From a phage, in the sequence record PZ465523.1: 49,119 nt of DNA; one strand, given 5' to 3'. A program made the position numbers and the translations under genes. This document shows, piece after piece, positions 14,608-29,533 of the stretch. The number at the start of each line of letters is the position of its first letter. Position 1 is the stretch's first letter. The notes under the pieces were generated by a model. The model was not told the DNA's origin. It searched no databases and worked only from the letters and a program-made list of their open reading frames with translations.

Positions 14608-14638
14608 GACCACATCTAAAACAAAGAGGATGCATATC

Positions 14639-14815
14639 ATGAAACGAGTTAAGTGCATCCGAAATGACTCAAAAACACTTCCATTCCGCGTAAATCAGAT
14701 TTATAGTGTTGGTTATGATTTCGGTGGTGGATTGTTTGAGATTTACGACGGGCAAGGTTCAGTAATCCAAGCACCTCTGAAAGGTAGCTATCTGGAATTT
14801 ATTGCGATAGATTAA
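14639..14815 (+). CDS. Small protein of the Cys beta-hairpin repeat family
   Basis: ATG after RBS AAAGAGG; VKCIRNDSKTLPFRVNQIYSV motif. Confidence 0.55.
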   Translation: MKRVKCIRNDSKTLPFRVNQIYSVGYDFGGGLFEIYDGQGSVIQAPLKGSYLEFIAID

Positions 14816-14836
14816 CAATATCATTCATCACCTTAC

Positions 14837-14869
14837 AGGCTGGCATGATTTACATGCTGGCCTTTTTGC
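14837..14869 (+). terminator. Rho-independent terminator
   Basis: 11-bp stem with two G-U pairs, 5-nt loop, then UUUUU. Confidence 0.65.
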
Positions 14870-14933
14870 GTTGTATCAATTAAATTTGAAGGTTAAAATC
14901 GACTCACTTGTTCAAAAAATATATGGTGAGATT

Positions 14934-15149
14934 ATGAAAGAATTTTTAACAGCAGCTACGTCAAGCACGGGCGGTGCTTCGTTGGTAGGGGCAGCGACAG
15001 GTCAACTTTATATTGCTGGCGCTACATTCATTTGCTTTCTGCTTTTTGGCGCTTGGGGAGCGTACTGGAAGTATCGCGATAGCAAGGCAATTCAGGAAGC
15101 GTTAAACGATGGCGATCTAAATAAGGCGCTTAAGATCAGGGGGAGATAA
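14934..15149 (+). CDS. Holin, single-TMD, possibly pinholin-like
   Basis: 71 aa with hydrophobic helix [21 protein letters not shown]; immediately upstream of endolysin. Confidence 0.55.
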
Positions 15150-15637
15150 TGAGTTTAAAAAATAACGTTATAGGAGCATCGATCGGGGCAGCTTTGACGT
15201 TGACACCTACCCTACTGGAACGAATCGAAGGTATAGAATACGAGGTTTATTACGATATCGCCGGAGTCCCTACCGTATGCAGCGGAATAACCGGGCCGGA
15301 CGTCATACCTGGTAAGAAATACACTAAGCGAGAATGCGATGCTTTGTTGATAAAACACATCGGCGTTGCTCAGAGATACGTAGACAAAAAGGTGAATGTT
15401 GATATTCCGGTAACGATGCGCGCGTCATTGTATAGCTTTACTTTCAACGTTGGTACTGGCGCGTTCGGATCTTCTACAATGCTTAAGCTAATAAATCAGG
15501 GTAAGCACAGGGAAGCGTGCAATCAGTTATGGCGATGGGTATACTACTACAACCCAAAAACCAAAAAGCGCGAAGTGTCTAGAGGACTCAAGAACAGACG
15601 CTCTGAAGAATACGCGTATTGCGTTAAGGAATTATGA
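15149..15637 (+). CDS. Endolysin, GH24 lysozyme family, with SAR-like N-terminal signal-anchor
   Basis: [23 protein letters not shown] catalytic region; Gly/Ala/Ser-rich weakly hydrophobic N-terminus. Confidence 0.7.
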
Positions 15638-16038
15638 TGAAACTGAAGAAAACATGCATTGCGATTGTAGTGGCTGTTGGTGTTATTTCTCTATCCTGTT
15701 GCTCGACGGCATCTGCCCTGAGCGGTTTAATCGGATCTAAACCTGAAGTTACAGCACAGATTGGAGAGGAGAACACAAAGCAATTAGCAGGAGTGACCGC
15801 AAAATCCGAAGATAAGCGAGATGTTAAAGTTGAAAAGTCCAATGTAGGAAAGGTTGACTCTTCCGTGAAGAAGTCAATTGAAGTTTCAACCATTCAGGCC
15901 AACACGGTTAACGCTGAAAGCATCACTGTTACAAAACCTGGGAACTGGTACGACGCTATCGCTGGCTGGACCCTCGTTCTCATTGGTCTGTTGCTGGTTT
16001 ATTTTTCACTTCGCAAGGACGAAAAAAAGGAGGCATAA
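15634..16038 (+). CDS. Unimolecular spanin-like lysis protein
   Basis: N-terminal lipoprotein-like signal ending LSCC plus C-terminal TMD; last gene of lysis cassette. Confidence 0.55.
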
Positions 16039-16053
16039 GCCTCCTTTTCTTTT
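16029..16053. terminator. Bidirectional terminator between convergent operons
   Basis: GGAGGC-ataa-GCCTCC stem with flanking A- and T-runs; spanin stop codon sits in the loop. Confidence 0.65.
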
Positions 16054-16267
16054 ATGCATCAGCCCACATGTAACTTTCGTTCGTGAGTTTTGCGTATTCG
16101 CGAACTTCAATTTCACAGGTGTCTACGTACATCTCAGCGACCTTTTTCTCATTCGCTACCGCTGATTCCTCGGTCCATCCATCAGCTTTGCTGTAGAGGG
16201 TAGGAATTTCACTTCTAGTGCCGTTAGAGTGATTGTAAACGCGAACTACTAAAAATTTGTTAGCCAT
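16052..16267 (-). CDS. Hypothetical protein (72 aa)
   Basis: ATG after RBS GAAGGA; first gene downstream of box at 16330. Confidence 0.5.
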   Translation of the reverse strand: MANKFLVVRVYNHSNGTRSEIPTLYSKADGWTEESAVANEKKVAEMYVDTCEIEVREYAKLTNESYMWADA

Positions 16268-16304
16268 GATATTTTCCTTCAGGTCGTTTCGTTTCGATGA
16301 AACA

Positions 16305-16350
16305 AATATACCCGATACGAGATCGGGTGTTTTAACAAAAAGTGCTATTT
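16305..16350 (-). promoter_or_regulatory. Box-type promoter: AAATAGCACTTTTTGTTAAAA, 22 nt, TATATT
   Basis: Hairpin CCCGAT-ctcgt-ATCGGG in spacer. Confidence 0.55.
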
Positions 16351-16456
16351 GTATCTTTTTACGTGGAGAAGCAACTCCCCATCTTGGTCGCAAAGATCAT
16401 GCTCGCTGTCGCCGTTGGCTCTCATTGAAGTGAGTAGCAGGCTCAATAATCCTTGT

Positions 16457-16864
16457 TCAAATTCTTCTTTCGTAAGCTGGAGACTTGCGCACAATTCGAC
16501 GTTCCGATCTATCAACGTTTCTACGTTCGCCAAACAATTCCTCATCACTCATTTCTCCAATGTGCATCATTTCCCACGTATATCGATTGTTGTAGCCATC
16601 AATACACATCAGCTTCATCATTACCGGGCGCTTGATCTTTCCCTTGCACCAGTAAAATCCATCATTACGATCCAAGTAACCCTCAGTCACGCAGCGTGCG
16701 CAAAACTCCTTAGATAGCGCGCTTGTAAATTCACGGTGAGTCATCCCGGCGGCCTTAGCAAATCGCTCACTTTCCTTGTGGGCGTATATAAATTTCGCTA
16801 TGTGCTGCCGAGTGTATTTGTCGTAACCTTCGCAGAACCTGAACAGATCCAAAAGAAGAAGCAT
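16457..16864 (-). CDS. Hypothetical Cys-containing protein (135 aa)
   Basis: ORF-track ORF with ATG start 4 nt after upstream stop. Confidence 0.5.
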   Translation of the reverse strand: MLLLLDLFRFCEGYDKYTRQHIAKFIYAHKESERFAKAAGMTHREFTSALSKEFCARCVTEGYLDRNDGFYWCKGKIKRPVMMKLMCIDGYNNRYTWEMMHIGEMSDEELFGERRNVDRSERRIVRKSPAYERRI

Positions 16865-16868
16865 ATTT

Positions 16869-18437
16869 TTAACCCATCAGTCGAGGATTTATGAAAACAA
16901 TATCATCAATACGGCAAGTGTAATTCATCTCTTCTAGCGTGATTAGAAGACTGTCGATTCGCTCAGATACTTTCTGTTGACCGTTGAACGGAGTAACGTT
17001 CCGGCACTTTGCAACAATACTATGAATAGGTGCGCGGCCTTTGTTCTTCTTCGCGATCTCAGTGATAACATCAATCAGCTTACGAGATTCAGCCTCATCA
17101 CCAGCATACCCGGCAGCGCTGGCAGACGACAGATAAGTCCTGGAAAGCTCATTGAAGATCATGATCGCTTCCTGCATTGTTTCAAGGTCAATCTCACGGT
17201 TGGAACGGTTCGGTGATTCACCCTCCCAATTCTTGATCGTGTGGAGAACCGAAGCAATACGCAAAGCGTGCTTATCGAACTTGCCGAGATGACCGCGAAG
17301 CATTGAGTGAGAGTATTTCCCCCCGGCGGCGAAATCAGGCTCCATCGCCTGGCGCGCAAGGTTTAATTCACGCATAGCATTACGGCTCACAGAGAGAACA
17401 ACGTTGTCCTCCTTCATGATGTTGTGCACGAGTCTGTAATATTTGCTAACCAGTCCGCGATCGACTTCCTTATACAGCGCATCGCCATTTTCATCACAAA
17501 GAATACGAGTACCTAAAAGCGGCTCCTCGCGAACCAACAAGAAACGTTCGGATACACCTATACCGCGCTGGCCTGCATCCATGATGCCCTTGATTGTTTC
17601 ATCCTGCGCAATGACGCAGATCGAACCGACCGGGCAAAGAGATAAGTTGTTGTCCTGATTTGAACGCGCGACCTCCATATGGTTTTTATCCCACGCCTTA
17701 AGGATAAGCTCACTGTTAGATTTCTTATCTGAACCGCCATACGTAAGCCCGAGCAATGTATTGATTGCCGTTGCCTCGTCAGATATTACGGAAAAGTGAC
17801 CTTGCACTGCCGCCACTTTCGCAAGACCTTCAGGTGTAGGATCTGATACAGCGAAAACAATATCAGCCATCTTCTTGATCTTCTCTTCCAGCTTTTCTTT
17901 GTCCTCGTACAGAGCCGCCGTCGTGTTGCCTTTAGGATCGTTTTTTATTTCCTTCTCGACCTGACGTAGCTGACTGGTTAAACGGATACGTTCCTTTTTG
18001 CGCTCTTCATTCAGTCGCTGAATCTCCGCACGCATAGGTGTAATCGCCGCTGAGTTAATCGCTGATTTACCTGTTGATGGTGGCTGACTGATTACCATGT
18101 AAAGCGCTGTCGGCTGTTCTTCTCCATGATATTGCACCCAAAACTTCCCGAGCATCGCGGCTGATATGCAACCGATAAAATGAGCATACGCGGATGAAAC
18201 CGGGAACTGGACTGATTCAGCTTTTGCTTTTGCATATTCGAATACCAGGTTATCGCCACCTAACGAAATCAGAGGGAACTTATCGTTTCCGCTGTTGATA
18301 TCGATCGGATCTTGCCAAAAAGAAACTGAATCCCCGTAACTGTTTTCACGAATTGCGATCGCCACCGGATTCACTCCAGTGCTATTTGCGATCTCAATAA
18401 TTTGTTGGTAATTCAGTTTTGGCTTAATGTTAAACAT
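16869..18437 (-). CDS. Large early protein, possibly replication-associated; function unresolved
   Basis: 523 aa; start set at ATG 18437 after RBS AAGGAG; no clear Walker A. Confidence 0.6.
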   Translation of the reverse strand: MFNIKPKLNYQQIIEIANSTGVNPVAIAIRENSYGDSVSFWQDPIDINSGNDKFPLISLGGDNLVFEYAKAKAESVQFPVSSAYAHFIGCISAAMLGKFWVQYHGEEQPTALYMVISQPPSTGKSAINSAAITPMRAEIQRLNEERKKERIRLTSQLRQVEKEIKNDPKGNTTAALYEDKEKLEEKIKKMADIVFAVSDPTPEGLAKVAAVQGHFSVISDEATAINTLLGLTYGGSDKKSNSELILKAWDKNHMEVARSNQDNNLSLCPVGSICVIAQDETIKGIMDAGQRGIGVSERFLLVREEPLLGTRILCDENGDALYKEVDRGLVSKYYRLVHNIMKEDNVVLSVSRNAMRELNLARQAMEPDFAAGGKYSHSMLRGHLGKFDKHALRIASVLHTIKNWEGESPNRSNREIDLETMQEAIMIFNELSRTYLSSASAAGYAGDEAESRKLIDVITEIAKKNKGRAPIHSIVAKCRNVTPFNGQQKVSERIDSLLITLEEMNYTCRIDDIVFINPRLMG

Positions 18438-18466
18438 CACAATAAACTCCTTAGTTGACGGTGTGA

Positions 18467-18512
18467 ATGATACACCGCCAATGTTACACGCGTTTTGCAA
18501 AAAGTGCTATTG
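18467..18512 (-). promoter_or_regulatory. Box-type promoter: AATAGCACTTTTTGCAAAA, 22 nt, TATCAT
   Basis: Hairpin CGGTGT-atcattc-ACACCG downstream. Confidence 0.5.
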
Positions 18513-18513
18513 G

Positions 18514-18930
18514 TTATAAGTATTTGGCCTCAAAGGTTGTGCCGTCAGCAATACTAAAACCAATCTCTTCGCGGAATAATGTCCAGCGGCAACCGTCCTC
18601 ATCAAAGATGTAACCAGCCACTCCACCGAGAGCGCGACCGCTTTCCACCTGGTAACGCTTGCCAACTTTGAATGATTTTTTCATTGGGTTGCGATGGTCA
18701 AGCCCGGTACACTTGAGTGTTTTGGTTTTAAGTTCAGTGAATTTTGCGAAGAAGATTTCATCAGATCCGTGAATCTGTAATTCATCGTGCTTATCAAGTT
18801 TTAAATACTTACCGCACTTTAACTTAACCTCGCGAGTGCCATCGTAGCGTTCTCGACCTTTGTACATGTTGTTAACTTCAAATCCTGTGATTTTGTCTGC
18901 TGAAGTGCATTTAAGTTTGATGGATTTCAT
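18514..18930 (-). CDS. Cys beta-hairpin repeat family protein (2-3 repeats)
   Basis: Repeats IKLKCTSADKITGFEV / VKLKCGKY / LKCTGLDHRNPMKKSFKVGKRYQV; start at ATG 18930 after CAGGAG. Confidence 0.6.
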   Translation of the reverse strand: MKSIKLKCTSADKITGFEVNNMYKGRERYDGTREVKLKCGKYLKLDKHDELQIHGSDEIFFAKFTELKTKTLKCTGLDHRNPMKKSFKVGKRYQVESGRALGGVAGYIFDEDGCRWTLFREEIGFSIADGTTFEAKYL

Positions 18931-18966
18931 TGCGTTCACTCCTGATTGGTTATCTTGAATAAGGCC

Positions 18967-19013
18967 ACTTTATCAAATGACATTACGTCAATATTAACAA
19001 ATCGTGCTATTTA
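18967..19013 (-). promoter_or_regulatory. Box-type promoter: AAATAGCACGATTTGTTAA, 22 nt, TAAAGT
   Basis: Read on minus strand. Confidence 0.5.
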
Positions 19014-19223
19014 CCAGGGAATATAATCGTCGTCGTCATTATCAACAATATCATCGCCGGGCATCTCGAAGTCGGGATTATATTCACTTTCTGCGTCCAT
19101 ATCCATATTCCCTAGCGCGTCGTCAAGCGTAATTTCTTTATATGCAACCTTGATACACCATTCCGCACTAAGCCCGGCATCGAGCGCGGCAAAATAACGA
19201 GTCCAGAAATTATCCTGTTCCAT
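19011..19223 (-). CDS. Small acidic protein (70 aa)
   Basis: C-terminus DDIVDNDDDDYIPW. Confidence 0.5.
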   Translation of the reverse strand: MEQDNFWTRYFAALDAGLSAEWCIKVAYKEITLDDALGNMDMDAESEYNPDFEMPGDDIVDNDDDDYIPW

Positions 19224-19226
19224 TAA

Positions 19227-19451
19227 TTAGCTCCATGAATTAATGTAAATCGAGTTAGCCTCAAGCGTTGCGCGAACATCCGCATCTGTTGCATTTACTA
19301 AGCGCGATCCTGGTGTGCTGCCAATAACGTTATTACCGTTCCGAGCCTTAGTTACCGTCATTGAAACAAAACCGGAAGGCTTATCCATTTTGATAACTAC
19401 ACGTCCTTTCGCGTTCAGATGCTTGATGATATTCTCAACTTTAATACTCAT
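19227..19451 (-). CDS. Hypothetical protein (74 aa)
   Basis: ORF-track ORF with ATG start. Confidence 0.5.
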   Translation of the reverse strand: MSIKVENIIKHLNAKGRVVIKMDKPSGFVSMTVTKARNGNNVIGSTPGSRLVNATDADVRATLEANSIYINSWS

Positions 19452-19484
19452 TTTTAATTCCTTTATTTCGCTTGGTGTGGGAGT

Positions 19485-19530
19485 AATATACCTTACTCCC
19501 TATTTATTGTCTTTAGCAATTAGTGCTATC
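19485..19530 (-). promoter_or_regulatory. Box-type promoter: GATAGCACTAATTGCTAAA, 23 nt, TATATT
   Basis: Hairpin GGGAGTAA-ggtatat-TTACTCCC. Confidence 0.55.
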
Positions 19531-19672
19531 AGTACTCGGAAATTACTTTGCACTCTTTGATTGTTCCACCTAGAACTACTTTCTGCATCATTGCTTTTTG
19601 GTGACTATCGTAAACGCGAACATTTTTTACGCTGTTAAATTTGCCAGTATAGAAAGTGTGAATATAAATCAT
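19529..19672 (-). CDS. Small protein (47 aa) not in ORF track
   Basis: ATG overlaps upstream stop as ATGA; its own TGA abuts the box TAGCAC. Confidence 0.4.
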   Translation of the reverse strand: MIYIHTFYTGKFNSVKNVRVYDSHQKAMMQKVVLGGTIKECKVISEY

Positions 19673-19989
19673 TTTTTACCGTCCCATGTTTGATACGCCG
19701 TCACAAGGTTAATGCTATGGTCGAACTCGTCAATGCTAAGCGATCCGATTCGAACCAGTTCTTTATCATGCTTAATATCGATCATCCGGCTATATGGATG
19801 ACCTGGCACGTATTTGAACAGTCGCTTACTGTCGGCAATATCAGCGTTGATTCCATAGAATCGGCCCACTGCCGCCTTCACGCGCTCCATGATGTTTTTT
19901 TCGTGGATTGCCGCCGCGTTATTCAATGCCGCGACCGTGCTTCCGTTAATCTTCGGTGATTTAGTTGTGATTTTATAAGTGTGGTTCAT
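19669..19989 (-). CDS. Hypothetical protein (106 aa)
   Basis: Start at ATG 19989 after RBS AGGGGGAA. Confidence 0.55.
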   Translation of the reverse strand: MNHTYKITTKSPKINGSTVAALNNAAAIHEKNIMERVKAAVGRFYGINADIADSKRLFKYVPGHPYSRMIDIKHDKELVRIGSLSIDEFDHSINLVTAYQTWDGKK

Positions 19990-20005
19990 TATTCCCCCTA
20001 ACCAG

Positions 20006-20569
20006 TCAGGATAGCTTTCGCGCTTCATCAATGATAACAGGTTCGAGACGCTCAAGTCGAACGCGGAACGTGTTCATAAATCCTTCGTTATTCTTCAATA
20101 GCTCGAAGGCGTCTGTTGCCTCAATGGCGCTATTTCCCATGTAGGCAACTACGCTCTTTTGCGTCTTGCGTGAGATCGCCACCACGCGGTAAATATTATC
20201 ACTCATACAATGCCTCCTTAACACGGTGCGCAATGCAGGAATTGACGGTGATTGAGTAGTTTGCCACGCCCATAATGCAATATTGCCAAGCTCGGTACGC
20301 ATTGATGGATTGTTAAGCTGGATTATCGTCTCTCCAGTATCTTTATCTACGAAGCGAGACACGCCCAAATGGTCAACCACGCGCGTTACGCGGTTCACGC
20401 ACTCCATTGCATCACTTACGCCGTAATAAGCGCTCAGAGCGGCTCTCACGGCCTTCTCTTGCTTGTTGTAAATCTTGCGCGCTATGTTCTCGATCGCAAT
20501 CTGCTCTTTTTCGTCAGTCTGTATTGCCGTGCTTGCTGAGAAGTCCAAGTCAATGAACTGCTTAAACAT
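20006..20569 (-). CDS. Hypothetical protein (187 aa)
   Basis: Start at ATG 20569 after RBS GAGGAAAG, downstream of box promoter at 20601..20645. Confidence 0.55.
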   Translation of the reverse strand: MFKQFIDLDFSASTAIQTDEKEQIAIENIARKIYNKQEKAVRAALSAYYGVSDAMECVNRVTRVVDHLGVSRFVDKDTGETIIQLNNPSMRTELGNIALWAWQTTQSPSIPALRTVLRRHCMSDNIYRVVAISRKTQKSVVAYMGNSAIEATDAFELLKNNEGFMNTFRVRLERLEPVIIDEARKLS

Positions 20570-20600
20570 GATTCTTTCCTCGTTTGCTGTTGATGGGATG

Positions 20601-20645
20601 ACTATACCAGCCATCCCGGATGCGCGTTTAGCAAAAAGTGCTATC
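20601..20645 (-). promoter_or_regulatory. Box-type promoter: GATAGCACTTTTTGCTAAA, 22 nt, TATAGT
   Basis: Hairpin GGGATG...CATCCC overlapping the -10. Confidence 0.55.
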
Positions 20646-20646
20646 C

Positions 20647-20751
20647 TCAGCGACCAACTGCATCCATAATGATTAAGAACATGATCGCGACCAGGCATCC
20701 TGACAGAGAGAAAAGCACCGATCCAATTGCATAATTAAAAAACTTTGCCAT
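20647..20751 (-). CDS. Small membrane peptide (34 aa)
   Basis: MAKFFNYAIGSVLFSLSGCLVAIMFLIIMDAVGR; RBS GAGGG; stop abuts box. Confidence 0.45.
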   Translation of the reverse strand: MAKFFNYAIGSVLFSLSGCLVAIMFLIIMDAVGR

Positions 20752-20756
20752 AATTA

Positions 20757-20984
20757 CCCTCTGAAACTATCAATTGTGTCGTTGATGTATTTCACTTGAG
20801 CCTCTACGTCAGACGTTGCGATATACTGGAATGTATCGTAATCATCCCACAAGTCGACAAGCTCAACCTTTGTATGATGCTATTTTAAGCCGCCCATGTG
20901 ACCGTAATGTGTGCGGTAGACGATGAATCCCTCATCATTGGCGCGCTGAATTGCTTTCTTTAATCCGGGGTGTTTAATTGCCAC
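20757..20984 (-). pseudogene. Reading frame interrupted by a single in-frame TAG; possible pseudogene or readthrough gene
   Basis: GTG start, 34 codons, TAG at 20880..20882, then 41 more in-frame codons to TAA at 20754..20756. Confidence 0.3.
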
Positions 20985-21015
20985 TTGGTCATTTCTCTGA
21001 TTGGTTGATGTTTTA

Positions 21016-21060
21016 AATATACCCCGATCACCTTCGGGGCGTTTAGCAATTCGTGCTATT
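21016..21060 (-). promoter_or_regulatory. Box-type promoter: AATAGCACGAATTGCTAAA, 22 nt, TATATT
   Basis: Hairpin CCCCGA-aggtga-TCGGGG in spacer. Confidence 0.55.
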
Positions 21061-21394
21061 AATCAATATCGAACTCAGCGGCATACGCTTTCTTGAAGCC
21101 AGCTTCACGCATGGTGCGCTTGCTGATTTTGCGCGGGAATTTGTACTGGCTGTTAGGCATAACCCACCAGAAGCAAGCAGTTTCACGAACGATTTCATAT
21201 TTACCGTAACGGGTGAAGGTGTCACGTTCCGCGTCCGGCTGGTTAACACAGGTCAGGAATTTAGCCGCTTTGTCTTCAGTTTTGATTTCTTCCCATACGA
21301 AGGAATCCATACCGTTAACATTGCAAGCTACCATGATGTACTCAACGCCGTTTTCGATTTTGATGATTTCGTTACCGCGATTTTCGTATTTCAT
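21059..21394 (-). CDS. Hypothetical protein (111 aa)
   Basis: ATG with RBS AGGAGCAGGAAA; C-terminus reads through the box. Confidence 0.5.
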   Translation of the reverse strand: MKYENRGNEIIKIENGVEYIMVACNVNGMDSFVWEEIKTEDKAAKFLTCVNQPDAERDTFTRYGKYEIVRETACFWWVMPNSQYKFPRKISKRTMREAGFKKAYAAEFDID

Positions 21395-21432
21395 TTTCCT
21401 GCTCCTGATGTGTATCTCGTTTCGATGAGGTA

Positions 21433-21478
21433 ATTATGCCAAACTACCCCGATCGAGTTTTAACAAAAAGTGCTATTT
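21433..21478 (-). promoter_or_regulatory. Box-type promoter: AAATAGCACTTTTTGTTAAAA, 22 nt, CATAAT
   Basis: Box encodes the Dcm C-terminus NSTFC and its stop. Confidence 0.55.
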
Positions 21479-22164
21479 GCGATCGCTTTGAAAAATCCAC
21501 GCGGCGACAGGGATCGTATCAGTTTGGTCTTTGCCGACTTGCCGCCCAACTTGCTATGCTGCGCAGAGTACCCTTCAGGAAGGCTTACAGGTTTTCTCTC
21601 CGGCATGACAAAATCGTCCGAGGTCCAAAGACACGTCTTTTTCGGATAAGCATCGCGCGGCGCAATATACATCGGGAACCAGGGATGCGAGTCATTCTCA
21701 GGAAGATAGCCGCCATACTCCCAGGGATTGAATGAGTGATCTGGTTTTCTCCAGGCAGATGACAGAACGCTAACCGGATTCTCAATGATGTAAGTCACGC
21801 CCAGGGCGTCGCCAATATTCGCAGCAATCCGGGCGGTGGCAACGGCCTTCTCCTGGAATAAGGGATTGCGCTTACGCTTACTTGCAAAGTGACGAGCACC
21901 ACTAACAGCCAGGTCAGTGCATGGAGGAAAGGCCATAATGAAATCCGGCTTACCATACACACCCGCAATCGCATCACGTTCGAACGTCTCATCAATGAAG
22001 ACGTTCACATACTCAATGTTCGGATGCTGTACCCGAGCATTGTACTTTGCATAATCTCCGTGATCGGCCCCGTCAAAGTTGAAGCACATCACCTTATGAC
22101 CTTGCTTAGCCAGTTCATGACCAGCAAGGCCGGAACCGTCGAATAGTGACCAAATTAGTTTCAT
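21460..22164 (-). CDS. dcm: DNA cytosine-5 methyltransferase
   Basis: LFDGSGLAG (motif I-like), FPPCTDLAVSG (motif IV PC), IIENP (motif VI ENV); start at ATG 22164 after AGGAGA. Confidence 0.7.
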   Translation of the reverse strand: MKLIWSLFDGSGLAGHELAKQGHKVMCFNFDGADHGDYAKYNARVQHPNIEYVNVFIDETFERDAIAGVYGKPDFIMAFPPCTDLAVSGARHFASKRKRNPLFQEKAVATARIAANIGDALGVTYIIENPVSVLSSAWRKPDHSFNPWEYGGYLPENDSHPWFPMYIAPRDAYPKKTCLWTSDDFVMPERKPVSLPEGYSAQHSKLGGKSAKTKLIRSLSPRGFFKAIANSTFC

Positions 22165-22197
22165 TGCAAATCTCCTGCTGATTGGTTGATGTGATGA

Positions 22198-22447: not shown

Positions 22448-22856
22448 CCGTCTATATCTTCGTTGTAATTGTCGTAATAGTTGTATACTATCGGGGGTGT
22501 TACAAAATGGCCCCGAAGGGATGGGCCTATATATACTAAAATATCTATATATAATAATAAGATAGATAATATATATATATTTATTTATTATATTATATAT
22601 TGGTATGTAATCGGCGTAATAGGTGCAACCGCATTTTTGGAAGGTGGCATATATTTCAGGGTGCATAGTATAAAAAACATACTATTCCGCGCGTCGAAAT
22701 GGATGTGTGTGCTTTTATAGAAAAAGTCGGTTGCATCGGTTGCACTGGTTACAAAAATAAAAAATGCAGCTATAGACATTGACGCGCCTAGCCAGGTTGC
22801 TGTAACATGTTTTTCGGGGCGGCAAGTTACGCCCGTAGACAACGAGGTATAGACAA

Positions 22857-23432
22857 ATGAAAACTCAGCTTAAAGAAGTAACGGAATTCGAACTCAACTT
22901 GCCGGACTACATTCGCAAGGCGATTGAAAATCACCGTTCAGGGAGTGAGTTCTCAATCACCGGAAAGCAAATGGTAGCTATCTACGTGCATGAGCAAGCC
23001 GAGATCGTAAAGATCACTCAGGATGTTGAGCTAACCGAGGACCAGATTGATGAGGCTATCATTAACGAGTACACGTCGCGCTCAGCCTGGTTGCTCGAAC
23101 GACTCACCGCTTCGTATGTTTCCAATATCATCAAGCGCCACATGCTCAAGGTGCATAACAAGGCCGTGTCGGTTCGAATCAATCGCGATCAGGTGGATGG
23201 CGTGACGATATTCATCACTGAACTGGAAGGTGAGGAAGCAGAAAAGGTCATAGGCGAAGCGAAACAGGGAAAGAGAGGACGGAAGCGTAAGAGCGTAGCC
23301 GATGTGTTCAATGCGAAGGTTGAGGCGTTCAGAATCGATCTGAGAGAGTTTGAAGGAAGCAACATCTCGGTATCGGATCTCAATAAACTGGTGGAGCAAT
23401 TCCGCGCACATTTACTGGGTGAGGAGAAGTAA
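22857..23432 (+). CDS. Hypothetical early protein (191 aa)
   Basis: First gene of rightward early operon; acidic protein with Lys/Arg cluster KQGKRGRKRK. Confidence 0.55.
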   Translation: MKTQLKEVTEFELNLPDYIRKAIENHRSGSEFSITGKQMVAIYVHEQAEIVKITQDVELTEDQIDEAIINEYTSRSAWLLERLTASYVSNIIKRHMLKVHNKAVSVRINRDQVDGVTIFITELEGEEAEKVIGEAKQGKRGRKRKSVADVFNAKVEAFRIDLREFEGSNISVSDLNKLVEQFRAHLLGEEK

Positions 23433-23434
23433 TC

Positions 23435-23590
23435 ATGAACAAGAAGAATGAAGGCAAAAAGAGCATTAGCCGTCACTTGGACACGTTCAAGCTGGATACT
23501 AAAAAACTGAGCGCGAACCGCATTCAACTTAGTAGCATCAATGAGATCGTGCGCCAGATGAAAGCGCATATCGAAAAGTGTGGACTGTGA
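23435..23590 (+). CDS. Small basic protein (51 aa) not in ORF track
   Basis: Strong RBS GAGGAGAAG; ATG 2 nt after upstream stop. Confidence 0.45.
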   Translation: MNKKNEGKKSISRHLDTFKLDTKKLSANRIQLSSINEIVRQMKAHIEKCGL

Positions 23591-23603
23591 GCACTGAACG
23601 GTA

Positions 23604-23648
23604 AATAGCACTTTTTGTTAAAACCGGATCGGAATAACCTGGTATAGT
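23604..23648 (+). promoter_or_regulatory. Box-type promoter: AATAGCACTTTTTGTTAAAA, 22 nt, TATAGT
   Basis: Read directly; upstream of gene 23680..24168. Confidence 0.55.
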
Positions 23649-23679
23649 AACCCCATCGACAACGAACGAGGACGCAAAC

Positions 23680-24168
23680 ATAAAAATCAAATTACTTTGC
23701 ACTGGCGGTTACAAGGGATTCACCCGCAACCTGGAAGCAGACCCTATCGTGGTTGATGCGGTTAAGTGCGATTCCAGCACTGGAGGCTACCGCGTTAAGG
23801 TTGACGATCTGGTTAAAGCTGGCGTGTACGATCTTGACTATGGACTTTCGGTTAGCCCTGTATTTGGTACGGCTGACTTTAACGAGAATGACGGAACGAT
23901 GTTCTTCTTCGAATGGGAAGTTCAAGCAAATCCTAAGCCGCGCAAGGTTCGACTTCTCAGTAATGGCGGCTACCCGCTGCGACAAGGCTATGAGAACCGC
24001 ACATTCCCAGTTATCGTGGACTTTGAAGAAATTACTAGCAATCTGGCATACGTTAACGATGAGCAGTTGCGAGCCGTTGGATTTGTCGGCGGGATGAATA
24101 AAGAGACGCTTTGCTTCTTCCACTGTAACGCCGAGCCGTTCGATATTGAGTGCGAGTTAGTTTACTAA
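23680..24168 (+). CDS. Cys beta-hairpin repeat family protein; apparent ATA start (ORF-track GTG at 23749 is the alternative)
   Basis: Frame open from 23638; RBS CGAGGA + 7 nt + ATA aligns with leaders of neighbouring genes; repeats IKLLCTGGYKGF and VKCDSSTGGYRVKV. Confidence 0.5.
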   Translation: MKIKLLCTGGYKGFTRNLEADPIVVDAVKCDSSTGGYRVKVDDLVKAGVYDLDYGLSVSPVFGTADFNENDGTMFFFEWEVQANPKPRKVRLLSNGGYPLRQGYENRTFPVIVDFEEITSNLAYVNDEQLRAVGFVGGMNKETLCFFHCNAEPFDIECELVY

Positions 24169-24209
24169 GCACGAATTGTTAAAAGGGGATTTGTCCTGAC
24201 TGGTATAAT
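24166..24209 (+). promoter_or_regulatory. Box-type promoter: TAAGCACGAATTGTTAAAA, 22 nt, TATAAT
   Basis: Gene stop TAA is the first triplet of the box; hairpin GGGGATT...AATCCCC. Confidence 0.55.
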
Positions 24210-24239
24210 CCCCAAGTAAACCACTAAGAGGAAAGAGTT

Positions 24240-24737
24240 ATGTTGAAATTAAACGAGATTAAATTCCCTGTAGTTTTTAACACTATTAGCTGCGGAAAAA
24301 TAACCTGCCATAGCAAAGACCGTGCAACAGATTCGTCATTCAATGAGTGCCATCCGTCTATTGTTGGTAATCTCATTGAGCTTCATAACAAGCACAACCC
24401 TGATAACATCCCGTCTCTTCCATATTATGTTGAGTATGTTGGACCCGGCTGGAAGGCTGGTTGGAAAGTTGGTAGAGCAATCTTTCATTCGTCAAAGCCA
24501 GAAATCAAGCCATCGCTACAGTGCACTCAGATCGAGAACATGCCATTGAGCGCGACGCTAAAGGGAGTCCAGCTTGATAGCGAATCCTGGACCGAGATTA
24601 CCGCCACACCTAAAACTATTGAGGTGCACGATGATGTGGTGATTCTCCTGTTGCATTACGGCGGCTTTAAGCACAAGACTGTATCAGGTGAAATCAGCAT
24701 TAAGCGCGGAACGCTTGTACGCTACGAGGTGAAATAA
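24240..24737 (+). CDS. Hypothetical protein (165 aa)
   Basis: RBS AAGAGGAAAGAG; ATG start. Confidence 0.55.
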   Translation: MLKLNEIKFPVVFNTISCGKITCHSKDRATDSSFNECHPSIVGNLIELHNKHNPDNIPSLPYYVEYVGPGWKAGWKVGRAIFHSSKPEIKPSLQCTQIENMPLSATLKGVQLDSESWTEITATPKTIEVHDDVVILLLHYGGFKHKTVSGEISIKRGTLVRYEVK

Positions 24738-24886
24738 TGGCTGCATGGGTTTTGATTATCTTAATGAGCACCGGGCCGGATCACGTATACATGGAAAGTC
24801 AGCAATCATGCAACAAGGCTCGGGAAGTAATTGCAGAGAACAAGCCGTTCGGGTACGAAGTTAAAACAATGTGCGTTAAACGATAG
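24737..24886 (+). CDS. Small membrane protein (49 aa) not in ORF track
   Basis: ATG overlaps upstream stop; hydrophobic N-terminus; TAG stop is part of box. Confidence 0.45.
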   Translation: MAAWVLIILMSTGPDHVYMESQQSCNKAREVIAENKPFGYEVKTMCVKR

Positions 24887-24926
24887 CACTAATTGCTAAA
24901 CCTTCCGCAAGGCCATTTGATATAGT
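24883..24926 (+). promoter_or_regulatory. Box-type promoter: ATAGCACTAATTGCTAAA, 22 nt, TATAGT
   Basis: Hairpin AAGGCCA...TGGCCTT spanning the -10. Confidence 0.55.
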
Positions 24927-24966
24927 GGCCTTATTGAAGCAAGGCAACCAATCAGAGGAATCAGCT

Positions 24967-25173
24967 ATGGCTACACGACTAACTCAGTGGCAGATTTACG
25001 ACAAGGCATCACGCCTTCGTGAATCGCTTCGCGGACTGACGCCGAATGACCGAATGGAGATTATCGGGCACGCATTGCACGAACTCACGCCTCAGGACGT
25101 AATCTATCATTCATGCGGCAATAAATTCTGGAACGTAACATTCGAGGTAAAGAAAGATGAGCAAAACTCATAA
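24967..25173 (+). CDS. Hypothetical protein (68 aa)
   Basis: ATG after conserved leader CAACCAATCAGAGGAATCA. Confidence 0.5.
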   Translation: MATRLTQWQIYDKASRLRESLRGLTPNDRMEIIGHALHELTPQDVIYHSCGNKFWNVTFEVKKDEQNS

Positions 25174-25444
25174 GTTAAAAATTACCCCGGTCCATTTCAT
25201 CGGTGTAATGAACGGCACAAAAACGGCAGAGTTCCGCATTAATGACCGCAACTTCCAGCTTGGCGATATCCTGGAGCTATGCGAGTTCGATCGGGATGAG
25301 TTTACCGGGTGGGAAGTGCATGCCAGGGTATCCGATGTTACAGACGTGACTCCTTACATCAATCGCGGGTATGACGATCAAGGATGCGACTTCACGCAAT
25401 ACGTGATGTTGTCAATCAAGCCTTACAGGAAGGTTAGACCATGA
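25157..25444 (+). CDS. ASCH-domain-like protein
   Basis: GTKTAEFR matches the ASCH G-x-K-x-x-E-x-R signature. Confidence 0.5.
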   Translation: MSKTHKLKITPVHFIGVMNGTKTAEFRINDRNFQLGDILELCEFDRDEFTGWEVHARVSDVTDVTPYINRGYDDQGCDFTQYVMLSIKPYRKVRP

Positions 25445-26097
25445 AATTTGAGTGCGTATCAAGTAGCGGATCTGGTTTTAAGTGGGGAAAAACTTACAAA
25501 GGTGTTCGCGTAAATGATGACAGCTTCATCATTACTGATGAGAACGGTTGCAACGTGAACGTTGTACGGCGTCACGAATACCAGGAAATTTTCCTGCCTT
25601 ATGGCGGTAGCTCAAAATATATCTTCCATCGAATCGTGGATGGTGTTAAATTTAACGACGTAATCGAAGCAATCAACCAACTGCATAATAAAGAGGTAAA
25701 ATTTATGAAATTCGAATGTATCAGTGATAACACCAAAAAATTTACCGTTGGCAAAATCTACGACGTTCCTACTGAGCACGCAAAGCACACTGTAGCGCTG
25801 ACCGACGACGCGGGCCGCCACCGCATTGCAACCGTAACTCACAATGGCGAAGGTCTTCGCTGGAATAGCGGCGGCACTAAGTTCGCAACGTTCGGCAAGA
25901 AGAAGCAGAAATTTAATACCAGTCGAATCAAGGGCGGTTTCCGCATCGAACATGGTAAGATTCACAGCGTTCATCCAAGCGAAGTTGATGGTAAAGTCAA
26001 GCCTAAGCTGACCAACAAGGATATTGATAATCTGGCGAATCTGGCTATGGCTACCGTGCTTCTTATTTCTCTTATCGTGCTGTTTTTCGTAGTTTAA
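25441..26097 (+). CDS. Membrane-anchored protein with two tandem Cys beta-hairpin repeats
   Basis: Repeats MKFECVSSSGSGFKWGKTYKGV and MKFECISDNTKKFTVGKIYDV; C-terminal TMD. Confidence 0.6.
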   Translation: MKFECVSSSGSGFKWGKTYKGVRVNDDSFIITDENGCNVNVVRRHEYQEIFLPYGGSSKYIFHRIVDGVKFNDVIEAINQLHNKEVKFMKFECISDNTKKFTVGKIYDVPTEHAKHTVALTDDAGRHRIATVTHNGEGLRWNSGGTKFATFGKKKQKFNTSRIKGGFRIEHGKIHSVHPSEVDGKVKPKLTNKDIDNLANLAMATVLLISLIVLFFVV

Positions 26098-26254
26098 CTT
26101 AAAGTGGGAATCGTTCCTGAGCGGTTCCCTATTTTTATGAGGTGAATATAAATAGCTTTATGCCTGACTTTAAGAACTGGAAAAACGAACCTCCATCATT
26201 TCATGAGTTGTTATTCTGCCTGCTGGTTTTGACGCTATCTCTTAAGGGTGTTTT

Positions 26255-26473
26255 ATGGCTACTATCATGACAGCAGAAGATGCAGCACGCGACGCAGTGG
26301 AAGGGATGCGCCCAAATAGCTCCAGAATCGCCCACTACTACAAATCTGATGTGTCGGCAGTGCAATTGGTCCATGAGATTTTAAGGCTACCACAAGTCGA
26401 TTCAGCGCGCGTGGTGACGTGCTTAAAAAATTATTTTTGCATCACTATTAAAACGAATAGCACGAATTGCTAA
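26255..26473 (+). CDS. Hypothetical protein (72 aa)
   Basis: ATG start; C-terminus NSTNC encoded by the box. Confidence 0.45.
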   Translation: MATIMTAEDAARDAVEGMRPNSSRIAHYYKSDVSAVQLVHEILRLPQVDSARVVTCLKNYFCITIKTNSTNC

Positions 26474-26500
26474 AACCTATCAAGGGGAATGCGCTATGAT
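26456..26500 (+). promoter_or_regulatory. Box-type promoter: AATAGCACGAATTGCTAAAA, 22 nt, TATGAT
   Basis: Hairpin GGGGAAT-gcgctatg-ATTCCCC. Confidence 0.55.
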
Positions 26501-26530
26501 TCCCCTACACCAACAAACGAGGAATCACTA

Positions 26531-26890
26531 ATGAAACACTTAATTTGCATTGAAACGCCTAACGATGAATACACTCTTCACGGTATCGGAATGTTCAAAG
26601 GTCACTACATGACAGCAAGCATTCATGATGCGCGACTATGCGATGGCGATCTGATGATTATATCAAAAGAAGTAAATCCGTACATTATGCAGAATCTTGG
26701 CAATAACGAATATATGGCATACGGCTGCAACGCCGTGTACAAGCATATCAAGATCCGCAAGCGTGTCGTGCGTGCATTCAAGAAGATTGCAATGAAATAC
26801 TGGAAGATGAGCAAGAAGGACGCCGGACGCTGGCGCGCAATGTTGCTGACTCGTACTTCTATCGTAACGGTGAGTCCCGCTACTTCCTGA
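26531..26890 (+). CDS. Hypothetical protein; C-terminal region may continue in another frame
   Basis: RBS CGAGGAA; alternative frame 26707..26976 encodes a more protein-like tail ending SCW. Confidence 0.45.
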   Translation: MKHLICIETPNDEYTLHGIGMFKGHYMTASIHDARLCDGDLMIISKEVNPYIMQNLGNNEYMAYGCNAVYKHIKIRKRVVRAFKKIAMKYWKMSKKDAGRWRAMLLTRTSIVTVSPATS

Positions 26891-26974
26891 TCGATGAAAT
26901 TATGGAAAGCTACGGCGGCGACTTCAGCCAGTGTAGCTTTGACGATTGGGCTGATTATGAGATCAGTTGCTGGT

Positions 26975-27019
26975 AATAGCACGAATTGCTAAAACTTGCT
27001 CAAGGGCATTTGTTAGAAT
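26975..27019 (+). promoter_or_regulatory. Box-type promoter: AATAGCACGAATTGCTAAAA, 22 nt, TAGAAT
   Basis: Hairpin AAGGGCATT...AATGCCCTT. Confidence 0.55.
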
Positions 27020-27058
27020 GCCCTTCGTTGAGTTAAGCAACCAATCAGAGGAATCAAT

Positions 27059-27262
27059 ATGAAAACTATTACCGGAATGAGCAACGAAACGAGAACGCAG
27101 AACGTTAACATGCTAATCGGGATGGCTGACGATATTCAGAATAGCCATGTCGTTATTGATTCATGCAATCAGACTCGTGAGAGTAAATTTGAATCATCCG
27201 GCTACAAAATTGTTGAAGAAGAATTAACCATCAAAATCATTCGCGTACAGGAGAAAGCATAA
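27059..27262 (+). CDS. Hypothetical protein (67 aa)
   Basis: ATG after leader CAACCAATCAGAGGAATCA. Confidence 0.5.
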   Translation: MKTITGMSNETRTQNVNMLIGMADDIQNSHVVIDSCNQTRESKFESSGYKIVEEELTIKIIRVQEKA

Positions 27263-27795
27263 TGGATAAAATCACAATTTGGGGTCAGACAATCAACCTG
27301 TTTCTCGGCACTCGCCGCGTGGCAATCTTTGACTTCGACGGAACACTGAGTGACGGCTCAAAACGTCTTCACCTGCTACCGACGAAAGATTTGCACTTAA
27401 CGGAAAGCTGGTCTGAGTTCAACCGCGCGGCAATATTTGACAATCCTATCCGTAGTACGATTGATGTGATGAACTCTATGTTTGCCGCTGGGTATCATGT
27501 GATTATTTTAACCGGGCGAAGCGATGAGGTGCGTTACGCATCTGAGTTATGGCTTAAGCATCACGGCGCTCGATATGATTACTTAGTCATGAGGCCGCAT
27601 ACCGACAACCGCAAAGACACGGTAATGAAAGAAGAGGCTGTGCGCGCGATCGGCATTGATAACATTCTGGCGGCCTGGGATGACTCACCGCAAATTATTC
27701 CATTATTCCGATCGCTTGGAATAACCACGTATGCCGTAGTTGACTATGGCGATAACGTTCACGACCATTTAAAATCTCACGGGGTGGATGAGTGA
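27262..27795 (+). CDS. HAD-superfamily phosphatase (polynucleotide 3'-phosphatase-like)
   Basis: DxDGT motif FDFDGTL near N-terminus; later TGR and DD motifs; start overlaps upstream stop. Confidence 0.65.
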   Translation: MDKITIWGQTINLFLGTRRVAIFDFDGTLSDGSKRLHLLPTKDLHLTESWSEFNRAAIFDNPIRSTIDVMNSMFAAGYHVIILTGRSDEVRYASELWLKHHGARYDYLVMRPHTDNRKDTVMKEEAVRAIGIDNILAAWDDSPQIIPLFRSLGITTYAVVDYGDNVHDHLKSHGVDE

Positions 27796-27907
27796 ACCTA
27801 TACGAATTTATTGCAGCACATCCTGTATTGACGGTTATCATCCTGTTAATCATCAATCACACTATCATCAATGTGGCAAAATTATTTTTAGGGAGATACT
27901 AACATGA
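27788..27907 (+). CDS. Cys/His-rich 39-aa peptide between phosphatase and kinase
   Basis: ATG overlaps phosphatase 3' end; stop TGA overlaps kinase ATG (ATGA); sequence MSEPIRIYCSTSCIDGYHPVNHQSHYHQCGKIIFREILT. Confidence 0.4.
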   Translation: MSEPIRIYCSTSCIDGYHPVNHQSHYHQCGKIIFREILT

Positions 27908-28476
27908 AAACAGCTATCATTTTAAACGGCGCACCTAGAGCGGGAAAAGACACTATCGGATGCATCCTGGCTGACACTTACGATCACGTAGCGCTCCGCA
28001 GCTTCAAGGCTCCAATGTTTGAGATTGCCCGGGCAATCCTGGGTGAAGCTAACTACGAGTATTTCATGTTCTTGTATGATGACCGTCGATATAAAGAAGA
28101 GCCAGCATCAATCCTGAACGGTAAAAGCCCGCGCCAGTTTATGATCTGGATTAGCGAGGAAGTCATCAAGCCGCAGTTCGGAAATCGCTTCTTCGGTATG
28201 CGAGCGGAAAGCGAGGTGAAAGAGTCGAACTCCCTTTCGGTATTTACTGATGGTGGATTCAAAGACGAAATCTTGCAGATGATTGAAGGTGATATCCAAG
28301 TCAAGCTATGCCGCATACATCGCAACGGCTGCAACTTCGATAACGACAGTCGAGATTATATCTACTTGGATGATATGATCGGTGTCAACGGTTATCAGGA
28401 ATGTGATTTCTTCTCTGTCGAAGGTCATCCAGAAATTACCGCTCAGCACATAGCCGCCACGTTCATCAATAAATAG
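27904..28476 (+). CDS. P-loop nucleotide or polynucleotide kinase
   Basis: Walker A NGAPRAGKDT near N-terminus; stop TAG inside box. Confidence 0.6.
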   Translation: MKTAIILNGAPRAGKDTIGCILADTYDHVALRSFKAPMFEIARAILGEANYEYFMFLYDDRRYKEEPASILNGKSPRQFMIWISEEVIKPQFGNRFFGMRAESEVKESNSLSVFTDGGFKDEILQMIEGDIQVKLCRIHRNGCNFDNDSRDYIYLDDMIGVNGYQECDFFSVEGHPEITAQHIAATFINK

Positions 28477-28516
28477 CACGAATTGCTAAAACGTCGATGG
28501 GGTGATTTGATATAGT
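28472..28516 (+). promoter_or_regulatory. Box-type promoter: AATAGCACGAATTGCTAAAA, 22 nt, TATAGT
   Basis: Read directly; kinase stop embedded. Confidence 0.55.
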
Positions 28517-28549
28517 TACCTCATCGACAACCAAGAGAGACAAATCGAA

Positions 28550-28759
28550 ATGATGGTATCAACTGATAAGTTTTTCACTTGCACTAAAACTTCTGAAGTA
28601 TTCGAACTGGTTCATACTGATAATGGTGATTTCATGCATGACGGTTGCGACGTTTTTATCGAAGTGAAAGAAAGCGACTATGACGACGGAGTTTATTATA
28701 ACCCGGCAGTGAACACTCAGTTTTTTACCCCGATCGAAGAGGAAGGAGAAGAGGCATGA
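28550..28759 (+). CDS. Small acidic protein (69 aa)
   Basis: C-terminus PIEEEGEEA; ATG after RBS AGAGAGA. Confidence 0.5.
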   Translation: MMVSTDKFFTCTKTSEVFELVHTDNGDFMHDGCDVFIEVKESDYDDGVYYNPAVNTQFFTPIEEEGEEA

Positions 28760-29100
28760 TCACGATTAACCTGTCAGAGAAGCAAGCTCGTGAAATCCTG
28801 GACACGATCGGCAACCAGTTACACATCAAAGGCGCTACCGCCGAACTTCTTAATCAGATCGAAAGGCAGCTCACTCCGGTGTCAACGAATCAATCTGAGT
28901 TCGCAGCATGGAAGAGTGAGCGCATCTTGCCAAATATCATCAAGACATGGAAGCGCAAGCATAAAAAAGAAATCAACGTTGAGGATTTATTTACCGATGA
29001 ATTAAGTCCTTCAAAGGTTGCTCAATATCAGTTGCGATACATGGAATCAGTTTGCAATCAGGTTTTAGGTGTTAATTTTTCATTCGGGAGAGGCAAATAA
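28756..29100 (+). CDS. Hypothetical protein (114 aa)
   Basis: Overlapping start/stop with neighbours. Confidence 0.5.
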   Translation: MITINLSEKQAREILDTIGNQLHIKGATAELLNQIERQLTPVSTNQSEFAAWKSERILPNIIKTWKRKHKKEINVEDLFTDELSPSKVAQYQLRYMESVCNQVLGVNFSFGRGK

Positions 29101-29330
29101 TGTTCGGTTTAAGTGAAGCGGAATGGAATGTTGTAAAGCGAGCAGCAAAGGAATTAAATAAATTCGTCAGTGGCATGAAGAAAGAAGATCGGAAAAACGA
29201 CAAGATCATGATTGACGTTATTTCTACTCACCACAAAAAGGTCGAATTACTCATAGATCGCTACAAATTTGTCTGGACTGCCGGGTATATTGCCGGGCGC
29301 GTAGGTAACAAAGAAGGGGATTACGAATAA
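29100..29330 (+). CDS. Hypothetical protein (76 aa)
   Basis: ATG overlaps upstream stop. Confidence 0.5.
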   Translation: MFGLSEAEWNVVKRAAKELNKFVSGMKKEDRKNDKIMIDVISTHHKKVELLIDRYKFVWTAGYIAGRVGNKEGDYE

Positions 29331-29533
29331 TGGCTAATTTACCAAAGAGAGGAGAGCAGGTTCGATGTGTCACTTCACGCAATAGCGACGCTTTCTCAGC
29401 CGGGTGCGCGTACGACGTAGAAAAGGTTAGTAAATCAAAGAGGCTTGTATTCGTGTACGGCGACGATGGAAACTTGCATGAGATTGATTACCCGCAGGAT
29501 ATGACTAAGGGACAATTCGAAATTAATGATTGA
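29330..29533 (+). CDS. Small protein of the Cys beta-hairpin family
   Basis: VRCVTSRNSDAFSAGCAYDV motif. Confidence 0.5.
   Translation: MANLPKRGEQVRCVTSRNSDAFSAGCAYDVEKVSKSKRLVFVYGDDGNLHEIDYPQDMTKGQFEIND

Follow-up and report, generated by a model that had tools for sequence, protein, structure and literature searches.

The window analysed here is a stretch of coliphage DNA of 49,119 nucleotides (sequence record PZ465523.1), and its sequence places it in Tunavirus, a genus of T1-like Drexlerviridae phages. Bases 14000-30000 share 90-94% identity with T1-like phages across 81-89% of their length, and the closest genomes, which include Eco_BIFF, Sfin-1 and LeonhardEuler (Bas13), are Drexlerviridae of that genus. 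Three small proteins encoded in the window, which we call A, B (18514-18930, minus strand) and D (25441-26097), contain five homologous copies of one domain: a single copy in A and two each in B and D. That these copies are both homologous and folded as small SH3-like β-barrels of 58-70 residues is very likely, and a fourth protein, E, is a probable distant member. An original prediction, made from the letters of the window, had joined at least six open reading frames (ORFs) into one family built from a repeat of 25-30 amino acids. Membership stands for A, B and D, whose repeats align significantly in profile comparisons and score above decoys; it is marginal for E and fails for the remaining listed ORFs, C, F and G, which score at or below decoy level. 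The coordinates of all seven ORFs proved correct against the ORF list and the gene calls of LeonhardEuler, where they are 'hypothetical protein' genes of equal length, except for F, which is longer in relatives.

Homology among the domains

Pairwise phmmer and BLASTP comparisons between the window proteins are individually non-significant (E >= 0.35), and profiles were therefore needed; even in these searches A, B, D and E pick one another reciprocally as best non-self matches. Alignments were built for ten units. That of A comprises 14 representatives from an exhaustive search, the N- and C-terminal domains of B and D (B_N, B_C, D_N and D_C) are slices of alignments of 45 B and 25 D orthologues, and those of F, G and the two halves of C (C_N and C_C) were drawn from related loci. 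In hhalign comparisons all ten pairs among A, B_N, B_C, D_N and D_C score between 17.4 and 41.3 over 24-62 columns, in register from the start of the domain. As a null, six queries (A, E, D_N, D_C, B_N and B_C) were compared with 173 decoy alignments from other genes of the window, β-rich tail proteins included, which gave a mean score of ~9.5 (standard deviation ~2.1) and maxima of 15.7-19.2. Of the in-family pairs, eight outscore the entire set of 173 decoys. The two weakest are A-B_C, whose score of 19.2 equals the decoy maximum, and B_N-B_C (17.4), near the 99th percentile; each of the five domains has at least two links above every decoy. D_N and D_C are matched with 94% probability (P=1e-7), and A and B_N with a score of 34.6 (92.7% probability, 45 columns). 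B_N also exceeds the decoys against D_C (25.7) and D_N (25.5), as does B_C against D_C (27.9) and D_N (23.5).

Contrary to the earlier view that no known domain could be assigned, A belongs to the Pfam family DUF7244 (PF23896), which it matches at 97.9 bits (E=3.4e-28) over 57 of 57 profile positions, with a gathering threshold of 27 bits, and the fold of D matches the solved structure of Gp54 of phage Bas11. DUF7244 also gives the only weak Pfam matches for B and D, which at 16.9 and 16.8 bits (E of ~0.007 each) miss the threshold; the same scan of E, C, F and G found no match. Among orthologues, it is the top, though sub-threshold, family for 6 of 45 B members (best E 0.0014) and 13 of 25 D members (best E 0.00038). 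In PHROGs each protein falls into its own family of unknown function, with cross-matches: the third-party family phrog_14592 is matched by D_N, D_C and B_C in one region of its profile, and phrog_10169 by both D_C and E. No Pfam catalytic domain was found in the window proteins.

Extent and fold of the repeated unit

The pattern by which the repeat was originally described has zero matches in the window when taken literally. A simplified form, [KRE]-C-[IVT]-x(4-11)-[FY]-x-x-[GN]-x-x-Y, occurs at six sites among 529 six-frame ORFs, once in A, twice in B, twice in D and once in E, against 0.07 expected from residue shuffles; this count is indicative only, since the pattern was composed after the sequences had been seen. 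The motif itself is real as a β1-loop-β2 hairpin, but orthologue alignments and the AlphaFold2 model of D indicate that the unit is a barrel of 58-70 residues and not a repeat of 25-30. The motif is the opening hairpin of such a barrel: a Cys-bearing β1 leads, through a loop that varies in length and corresponds to the SH3 RT-loop, into a β2 with F-x-x-G-x-x-Y. Similarity among the copies runs beyond this hairpin, into a [VI]-x-[VI]-x-D-[DE]-x-G strand-turn followed by a C-terminal aromatic strand. Apart from the hydrophobic core and Gly, all six copies in the window share just one residue, a single Cys in β1.

The AlphaFold2 model of D, which used a 25-sequence alignment, displays two six-stranded β domains with the same strand order. 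The strands of D_N span residues 2-8, 18-25, 28-32, 38-45, 50-53 and 60-66, with a predicted local distance difference test score (pLDDT) of ~88 over residues 1-66; those of D_C span residues 88-95, 106-110, 117-121, 127-133, 138-140 and 147-150. The pLDDT of residues 152-190 is below 50. Foldseek searches of the BFVD database with the D model retrieve many phage proteins of 54-81 amino acids at template modelling (TM) scores of 0.6-0.8, and structural superposition on SH3, Tudor or KOW domains identifies the fold as an SH3-like small β-barrel. Among the BFVD models, A0A2D1GQB5 from phage ISF001 matches D with a probability of 0.99 over 137 columns; as this protein is an orthologue of B, an independently predicted model of B superposes on D. 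The models of D and E and the BFVD model of the B orthologue are all SH3-like, in agreement with a common fold.

The description of D as two repeats and a membrane anchor is borne out as far as two barrels and a C-terminal anchor are concerned, with the repeats being domains of ~68-70 residues. Its C-terminal barrel is nearly invariant, with 25 invariant columns among 25 orthologues, and its N-terminal barrel is optional, being missing from the 124-residue version in phage T1. At the extreme C-terminus, 13 of 15 residues are hydrophobic. This is the only hydrophobic segment of D, and it follows the linker of isoelectric point (pI) 10.3, so the barrels are probably cytoplasmic. For B, two to three repeats had been proposed: two copies hold, as domains of ~66-72 residues, and the third, a middle 'LKCGK', is not conserved in the 45 orthologues. 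This middle element is lineage-specific and lies inside the N-terminal barrel. Across Drexlerviridae the N-terminal barrel of B is variable (42% mean pairwise identity) and is replaced in Bas11, and the C-terminal barrel is conserved (77%).

Protein E is a borderline case. Its AlphaFold2 model (pLDDT 86.8) has five strands and a short helix in the canonical SH3-like topology. By hhalign it scores 15.2 with D_C and 14.8 with the combined family profile, the latter over 31 columns, in register and above all 173 decoys (maximum 14.1). A combined hidden Markov model (HMM) of the family ranks E as the first non-member (E=0.33), and D matches the PHROG family of E, phrog_4927, at 0.003. The shared superfold and the weak sequence signal together make membership of E probable.

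Further putative members occur in related phages. Sfin2_51 of Shigella phage Sfin-2 (8173-8385), a 70-residue ORF labelled 'DNA methylase', is really another SH3-like paralogue: it has the motif, reaches a Foldseek TM score of 0.77 to the D model and matches the family HMM with p=4e-6. Its counterpart is absent from the window. In Bas11, small ORFs at 45147-45338, 44408-44617, 47216-47653 and 42369-42554 bear the β1-loop-β2 signature (e.g. MKCIRSTYDIFKAGESYQL), and two of them match the family HMM with E of 4e-4 and 4e-3.

Genome context, distribution and selection

A published study of phage KanT1 treats the orthologue of A as a 'standalone SH3 domain' and proposes that it is an auxiliary lysis factor, InterPro placing DUF7244 in the SH3 clan (Eremina et al. 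2026, PMC13164509). That survey, with thresholds of E <= 1e-5 and coverage >= 0.5, found a DUF7244 protein in 188 of 522 Drexlerviridae, always near lysis genes, and the order exonuclease-SH3-holin-endolysin-spanin in 39 of 42 Tunavirus genomes, with a lysis system of pinholin and signal-anchor-release (SAR) endolysin; it reports no paralogues (PMC13164509). We find the same gene order in Bas11 and in the window, where A lies between a DNA-repair exonuclease ORF (13422-14573) and the holin and endolysin genes, and not on an early arm as had been supposed. A is a full-length DUF7244 protein in the published position, and B and D are its closest relatives at the profile level; they differ from it in their sub-threshold scores (~17 bits), their two-domain architecture and their location elsewhere in the genome, and D also in its membrane anchor. 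None of B, D and E is a stand-alone protein of ~57 residues between exonuclease and holin: all three lie elsewhere, and B and D have two domains. A consensus scan located a strong terminator-like hairpin immediately after A, at a position where the annotation of phage SA12KD has a rho-independent terminator. The exonuclease operon therefore appears to end with A, and this suggests that the published 'lysis-module SH3' gene shares its transcript with the exonuclease gene that precedes it.

The other members were traced by tblastn in 50,697 phage records. B occurs in 824 of them, from phages of Klebsiella, Escherichia, Salmonella, Citrobacter and other hosts, and is near-universal in Drexlerviridae. 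In Tunavirus, Webervirus, Nouzillyvirus, Tlsvirus and Henuseptimavirus it is always found just upstream of a DUF3987 helicase. In this pair (16869-18930 in the window, and relatives) one small ORF intervenes in three of the five genera or subfamilies. Terminators are annotated on both flanks of the B orthologue in SA12KD. D was found in 68 records, all of them T1-like phages of Escherichia or Shigella, and E in 103. D begins at an ATG that shares bases with the stop codon of the DUF3850 gene upstream (ATGA; 25157-25444 / 25441), and E likewise begins within the stop codon of the ORF before it (29100-29330 / 29330), which suggests translational coupling in both cases.

The ratio of non-synonymous to synonymous substitution rates (dN/dS), computed among close relatives, is 0.15 for D_N, 0.05 for D_C, 0.05 for B_N and 0.06 for B_C, and 0.32 for the linker and anchor of D. 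The barrels of B and D are real genes under purifying selection (dN/dS 0.05-0.15), and the same comparison of close relatives shows no sign of diversifying or positive selection, the variable N-terminal barrels included.

Table 1. Location of the domains and neighbouring features in the window, with the evidence for each
Feature	Coordinates	Strand	Evidence
Protein A, 58 aa, single SH3-like barrel, Pfam DUF7244 / phrog_4788	14639..14815	+	Pfam, hhalign
Terminator-like hairpin between A and the holin gene, 11-bp stem and T run	14837..14863	+	consensus scan
Protein B, C-terminal barrel, residues 67-138 and stop codon	18514..18732	-	hhalign, BFVD model of orthologue
Protein B, N-terminal barrel, residues 1-66	18733..18930	-	orthologue alignment, hhalign
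Protein G, proposed as weak member, not supported	19529..19672	-	
Protein C, tandem duplication of a different module of ~80 aa	23680..24168	+	hhalign, phrog_13367
Protein D, N-terminal six-stranded barrel, residues 1-68	25441..25644	+	AlphaFold2, hhalign, alignment
Protein D, inter-barrel helix, residues 71-82	25651..25686	+	AlphaFold2
Protein D, C-terminal six-stranded barrel, residues 86-155	25696..25905	+	AlphaFold2, alignment
Protein D, disordered basic linker, residues 156-190, pI 10.3	25906..26010	+	AlphaFold2, composition
Protein D, C-terminal transmembrane tail anchor, residues 191-218 and stop codon	26011..26097	+	AlphaFold2 helix 192-217
Protein F, frameshifted relative to orthologues, proposed as weak member, not supported	26531..26890	+	
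Protein E, 67 aa, canonical five-stranded SH3-like barrel, phrog_4927	29330..29533	+	AlphaFold2, weak profile signal

Function of the barrels

Gp54 of Bas11 (39780-39980, minus strand) offers the nearest experimental comparison. It is a non-essential protein of 66 residues and unknown function, forming a six-stranded barrel with a prominent β1-β2 loop, which its authors describe as a very rare topology (Zhang et al. 2024, PMC11578894). The loop and the sheet face next to it contact the antitoxin domain, a pseudo-zinc-finger, of CapRelSJ46 (dissociation constant 0.8 µM), and Gp54 is the direct trigger of this toxin-antitoxin defence, which it activates by partially unfolding; a homologue from Bas10 that differs at only three residues fails to activate CapRelSJ46, and the authors raise the possibility that Gp54 inhibits some other defence system (PMC11578894). 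The fold of D matches that of Gp54 (PDB 9AXB), both in the six-stranded barrel and in the prominent β1-β2 loop. The two differ in sequence, with 12% identity in the structural alignment and no Cys in β1 of Gp54, and E, being five-stranded, does not retrieve 9AXB. Gp54 matches Pfam PF25180 at 113 bits; none of the seven window proteins matches PF25180 at E <= 1, and the window contains no Gp54 orthologue. Relative to canonical SH3, Tudor and KOW domains, a sixth strand in D replaces the 3-10 helix of SH3, the window domains have no proline-rich-peptide, methyl-lysine or KOW signature, and the proteins are stand-alone or tandem phage ORFs.

On balance we lean slightly towards a family of SH3-like barrels that serve as binding modules as the best explanation of the whole. 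One ancestral domain would have diversified in T1-like phages into several proteins, A, B, D and probably E, with A a stand-alone barrel, B a soluble tandem of two barrels, and D a tandem that would be held on the cytoplasmic face of the inner membrane by its basic linker and tail anchor. The barrels would be non-enzymatic, cytoplasmic protein-binding modules, and each paralogue might recognise a different host or phage partner through its β1-β2 loop and the adjoining sheet face, the partner being fixed within an orthologous group and different between paralogues. This binding role of the paralogues is advanced tentatively. The proposed specificity of the loop draws on the interface between Gp54 and CapRel and on the conservation of the loop in A and D_C, where it is the best-conserved segment within the group (0.76 versus 0.54 for the rest in A, 0.99 versus 0.91 in D_C), with length and sequence that differ between paralogues.

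Several observations count against this explanation. The pattern of loop conservation fails for B_N and B_C. Gp54 belongs to a Pfam family of its own, its link to the window domains is structural only, and phmmer and hhalign comparisons of Gp54 with the window ORFs and the domain profiles returned noise. The structures predicted here are those of D and E, and the model of D_C is of moderate confidence (pLDDT ~57-79 over residues 88-150). SH3-like barrels are among the commonest small folds, and fold similarity consequently constrains function weakly.

Chance or convergence, by which the shared pattern would be a generic alternation of β-hairpins with no common ancestry, is scarcely credible as an alternative. 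The non-significant pairwise searches would fit it, as would the marginal sequence evidence of E on its own and the spurious, hairpin-like matches of A to giant repeat proteins. It leaves unexplained the alignments that stay in register over 24-62 columns, the eight of ten in-family pairs that outscore every decoy, β-rich tail proteins included, the curated DUF7244 model, whose best matches below the threshold are the families of B and D, and the agreement of the predicted folds; for A, B and D it is disfavoured. The barrels might alternatively bind nucleic acid or the replication or transcription machinery, in the manner of KOW, Tudor or helicase SH3-like domains, with B as an accessory of the DUF3987 helicase. 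The constant place of B just upstream of that helicase in five genera or subfamilies and the basic character of B_N, B_C and D_C (pI 8.9-9.8) agree with such a role, but the pI of E is acidic (5.2) and those of A and D_N are close to neutral, synteny alone is no proof of a functional link, and the B orthologue of SA12KD is flanked by terminators. We consider this explanation decidedly unlikely; what suggests a helicase or nucleic-acid role for B is synteny and charge only.

Another explanation, in line with the original prediction, holds that the paralogues form an expanded host-takeover or anti-defence family, acting as inhibitors, decoys or perhaps sensed triggers like Gp54; this would be a special case of the binding-module explanation, and we regard it as rather unlikely. 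D, E and C do lie within arms of small ORFs of unknown function, the set of paralogues varies among close relatives (the extra member in Sfin-2, the further motif ORFs in Bas11), D is restricted to Escherichia and Shigella T1-like phages and can lack its N-terminal barrel, and Gp54 is non-essential and may inhibit another defence (PMC11578894). D, E and Sfin2_51 look like accessory genes, and an anti-defence role might apply to D, E and the extra paralogues that come and go. For B and A the fit is poor: B is spread across Drexlerviridae, always by the DUF3987 helicase, and A is fixed beside the lysis cassette in the genomes that carry it (PMC13164509). Judged by dN/dS, close relatives show no trace of an arms race, and Gp54 has no sequence match to the window proteins. 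The proposal made for the KanT1 orthologue, that A is an SH3b-like cell-wall-binding domain that aids the endolysin, has in its favour the conserved place by the lysis genes (PMC13164509), which the window and Bas11 share. The likeness to SH3b domains lies in the SH3-like fold class, and proximity to lysis genes applies to A only. Against it, A is not fused to an endolysin and the terminator-like hairpin parts it from the holin gene, here and in SA12KD. Sequence inspection of A, B and E found no signal peptide, membrane segment or hydrophobic N-terminal segment, and D has only its tail anchor behind the basic linker; neither an endolysin fusion nor an export signal would give these proteins access to peptidoglycan. 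With a pinholin and a SAR endolysin, a cytoplasmic A would reach the cell wall only after the envelope had failed. B and D, the paralogues of A, probably stay in the cytoplasm or are anchored facing it, and no SH3b domain is among the best 60 structural matches listed. The published idea is weakened by the absent export signal, the terminator and the cytoplasmic paralogues, and a cell-wall role of A now seems very unlikely.

Returning to the binding modules, a bolder version, which we consider unlikely as it stands, is that T1-like phages keep a diversifying toolkit of barrels of the DUF7244 and Gp54 kind, each binding a different protein of host surveillance or defence. With its pair of tethered barrels D would hold its target captive at the inner membrane, and some members would also serve as patterns that CapRel-type immunity proteins recognise. 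On this view B, D and E would act against defences or trigger them, and share their fold with Gp54, the only characterised example.

The family consists of new, diverged members and new architectures, tandem and tail-anchored, of a known kind of small phage protein; it is no new kind of system and reveals no new mechanism. A has already been published as a standalone SH3 domain; its links to B and D appear to be new, and we found no paper that connects B, D or E to an SH3-like fold. T1-like phages lack a functional assignment for about half of their genes, and the present grouping turns several such small ORFs into one testable family of SH3-like barrels, set beside two relatives: DUF7244, the neighbour of the lysis genes, and Gp54, the activator of CapRel. 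It bears on the proposal of DUF7244 as a cell-wall-binding lysis accessory, and the LeonhardEuler orthologues bas13_0039, bas13_0047, bas13_0070 and bas13_0080 are concrete candidates for partner or defence assays.

Rejected candidates and other observations

The exhaustive phmmer search with A, against 1.84 billion proteins, also returned giant proteins of 543-3381 residues that match residues 18-49 of A in 1-12 stretches; these matches sum many weak, hairpin-like stretches over repetitive sequence, and the proteins are not homologues. The one with clear domains, P0159, consists of prealbumin-like SpaA/SdrD_B repeats, and two others that were examined show scattered, mixed low-level matches. 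Searches of PDB sequences with E and with the A-family profile gave chance matches to repeat proteins only.

The leftward and rightward arms of small ORFs are separated by an intergenic region of ~640 bp (22216-22856), in which a consensus scan found weak sigma-70-like matches only. An ORF at 21059-21394 contains a near-miss of the motif (KFLTCV...FTRYGKYEI) and has no profile support.

The combined HMM and the PHROG cross-matches likewise reject C, F and G as members. The hhalign scores of G are 6.6-10.4, and its PHROG matches share none with the family. F scores at noise level (8-13). Relative to LeonhardEuler, a deletion of 1 nucleotide in a run of G at ~26833 shifts its frame; F ends early with an unrelated C-terminus, compared with ~162 residues in relatives, and phrog_10642 matches its residues 1-103 only.

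The two repeats reported in C are a true internal duplication, but of a module that is not that of A, B and D. Against the family C stays at noise level in hhalign, save for a trivial six-column match of C_N. Its halves match each other (24.9) and both match phrog_13367 (1e-4 and 2e-5), which identifies C as a tandem of a different module. The start codon of C is ATA (23680-23682), whereas in LeonhardEuler the same Shine-Dalgarno sequence is followed by ATG, and the next in-frame start is a GTG at 23749; either the start codon has mutated, ATA serves here as a rare start, or the sequence is in error.

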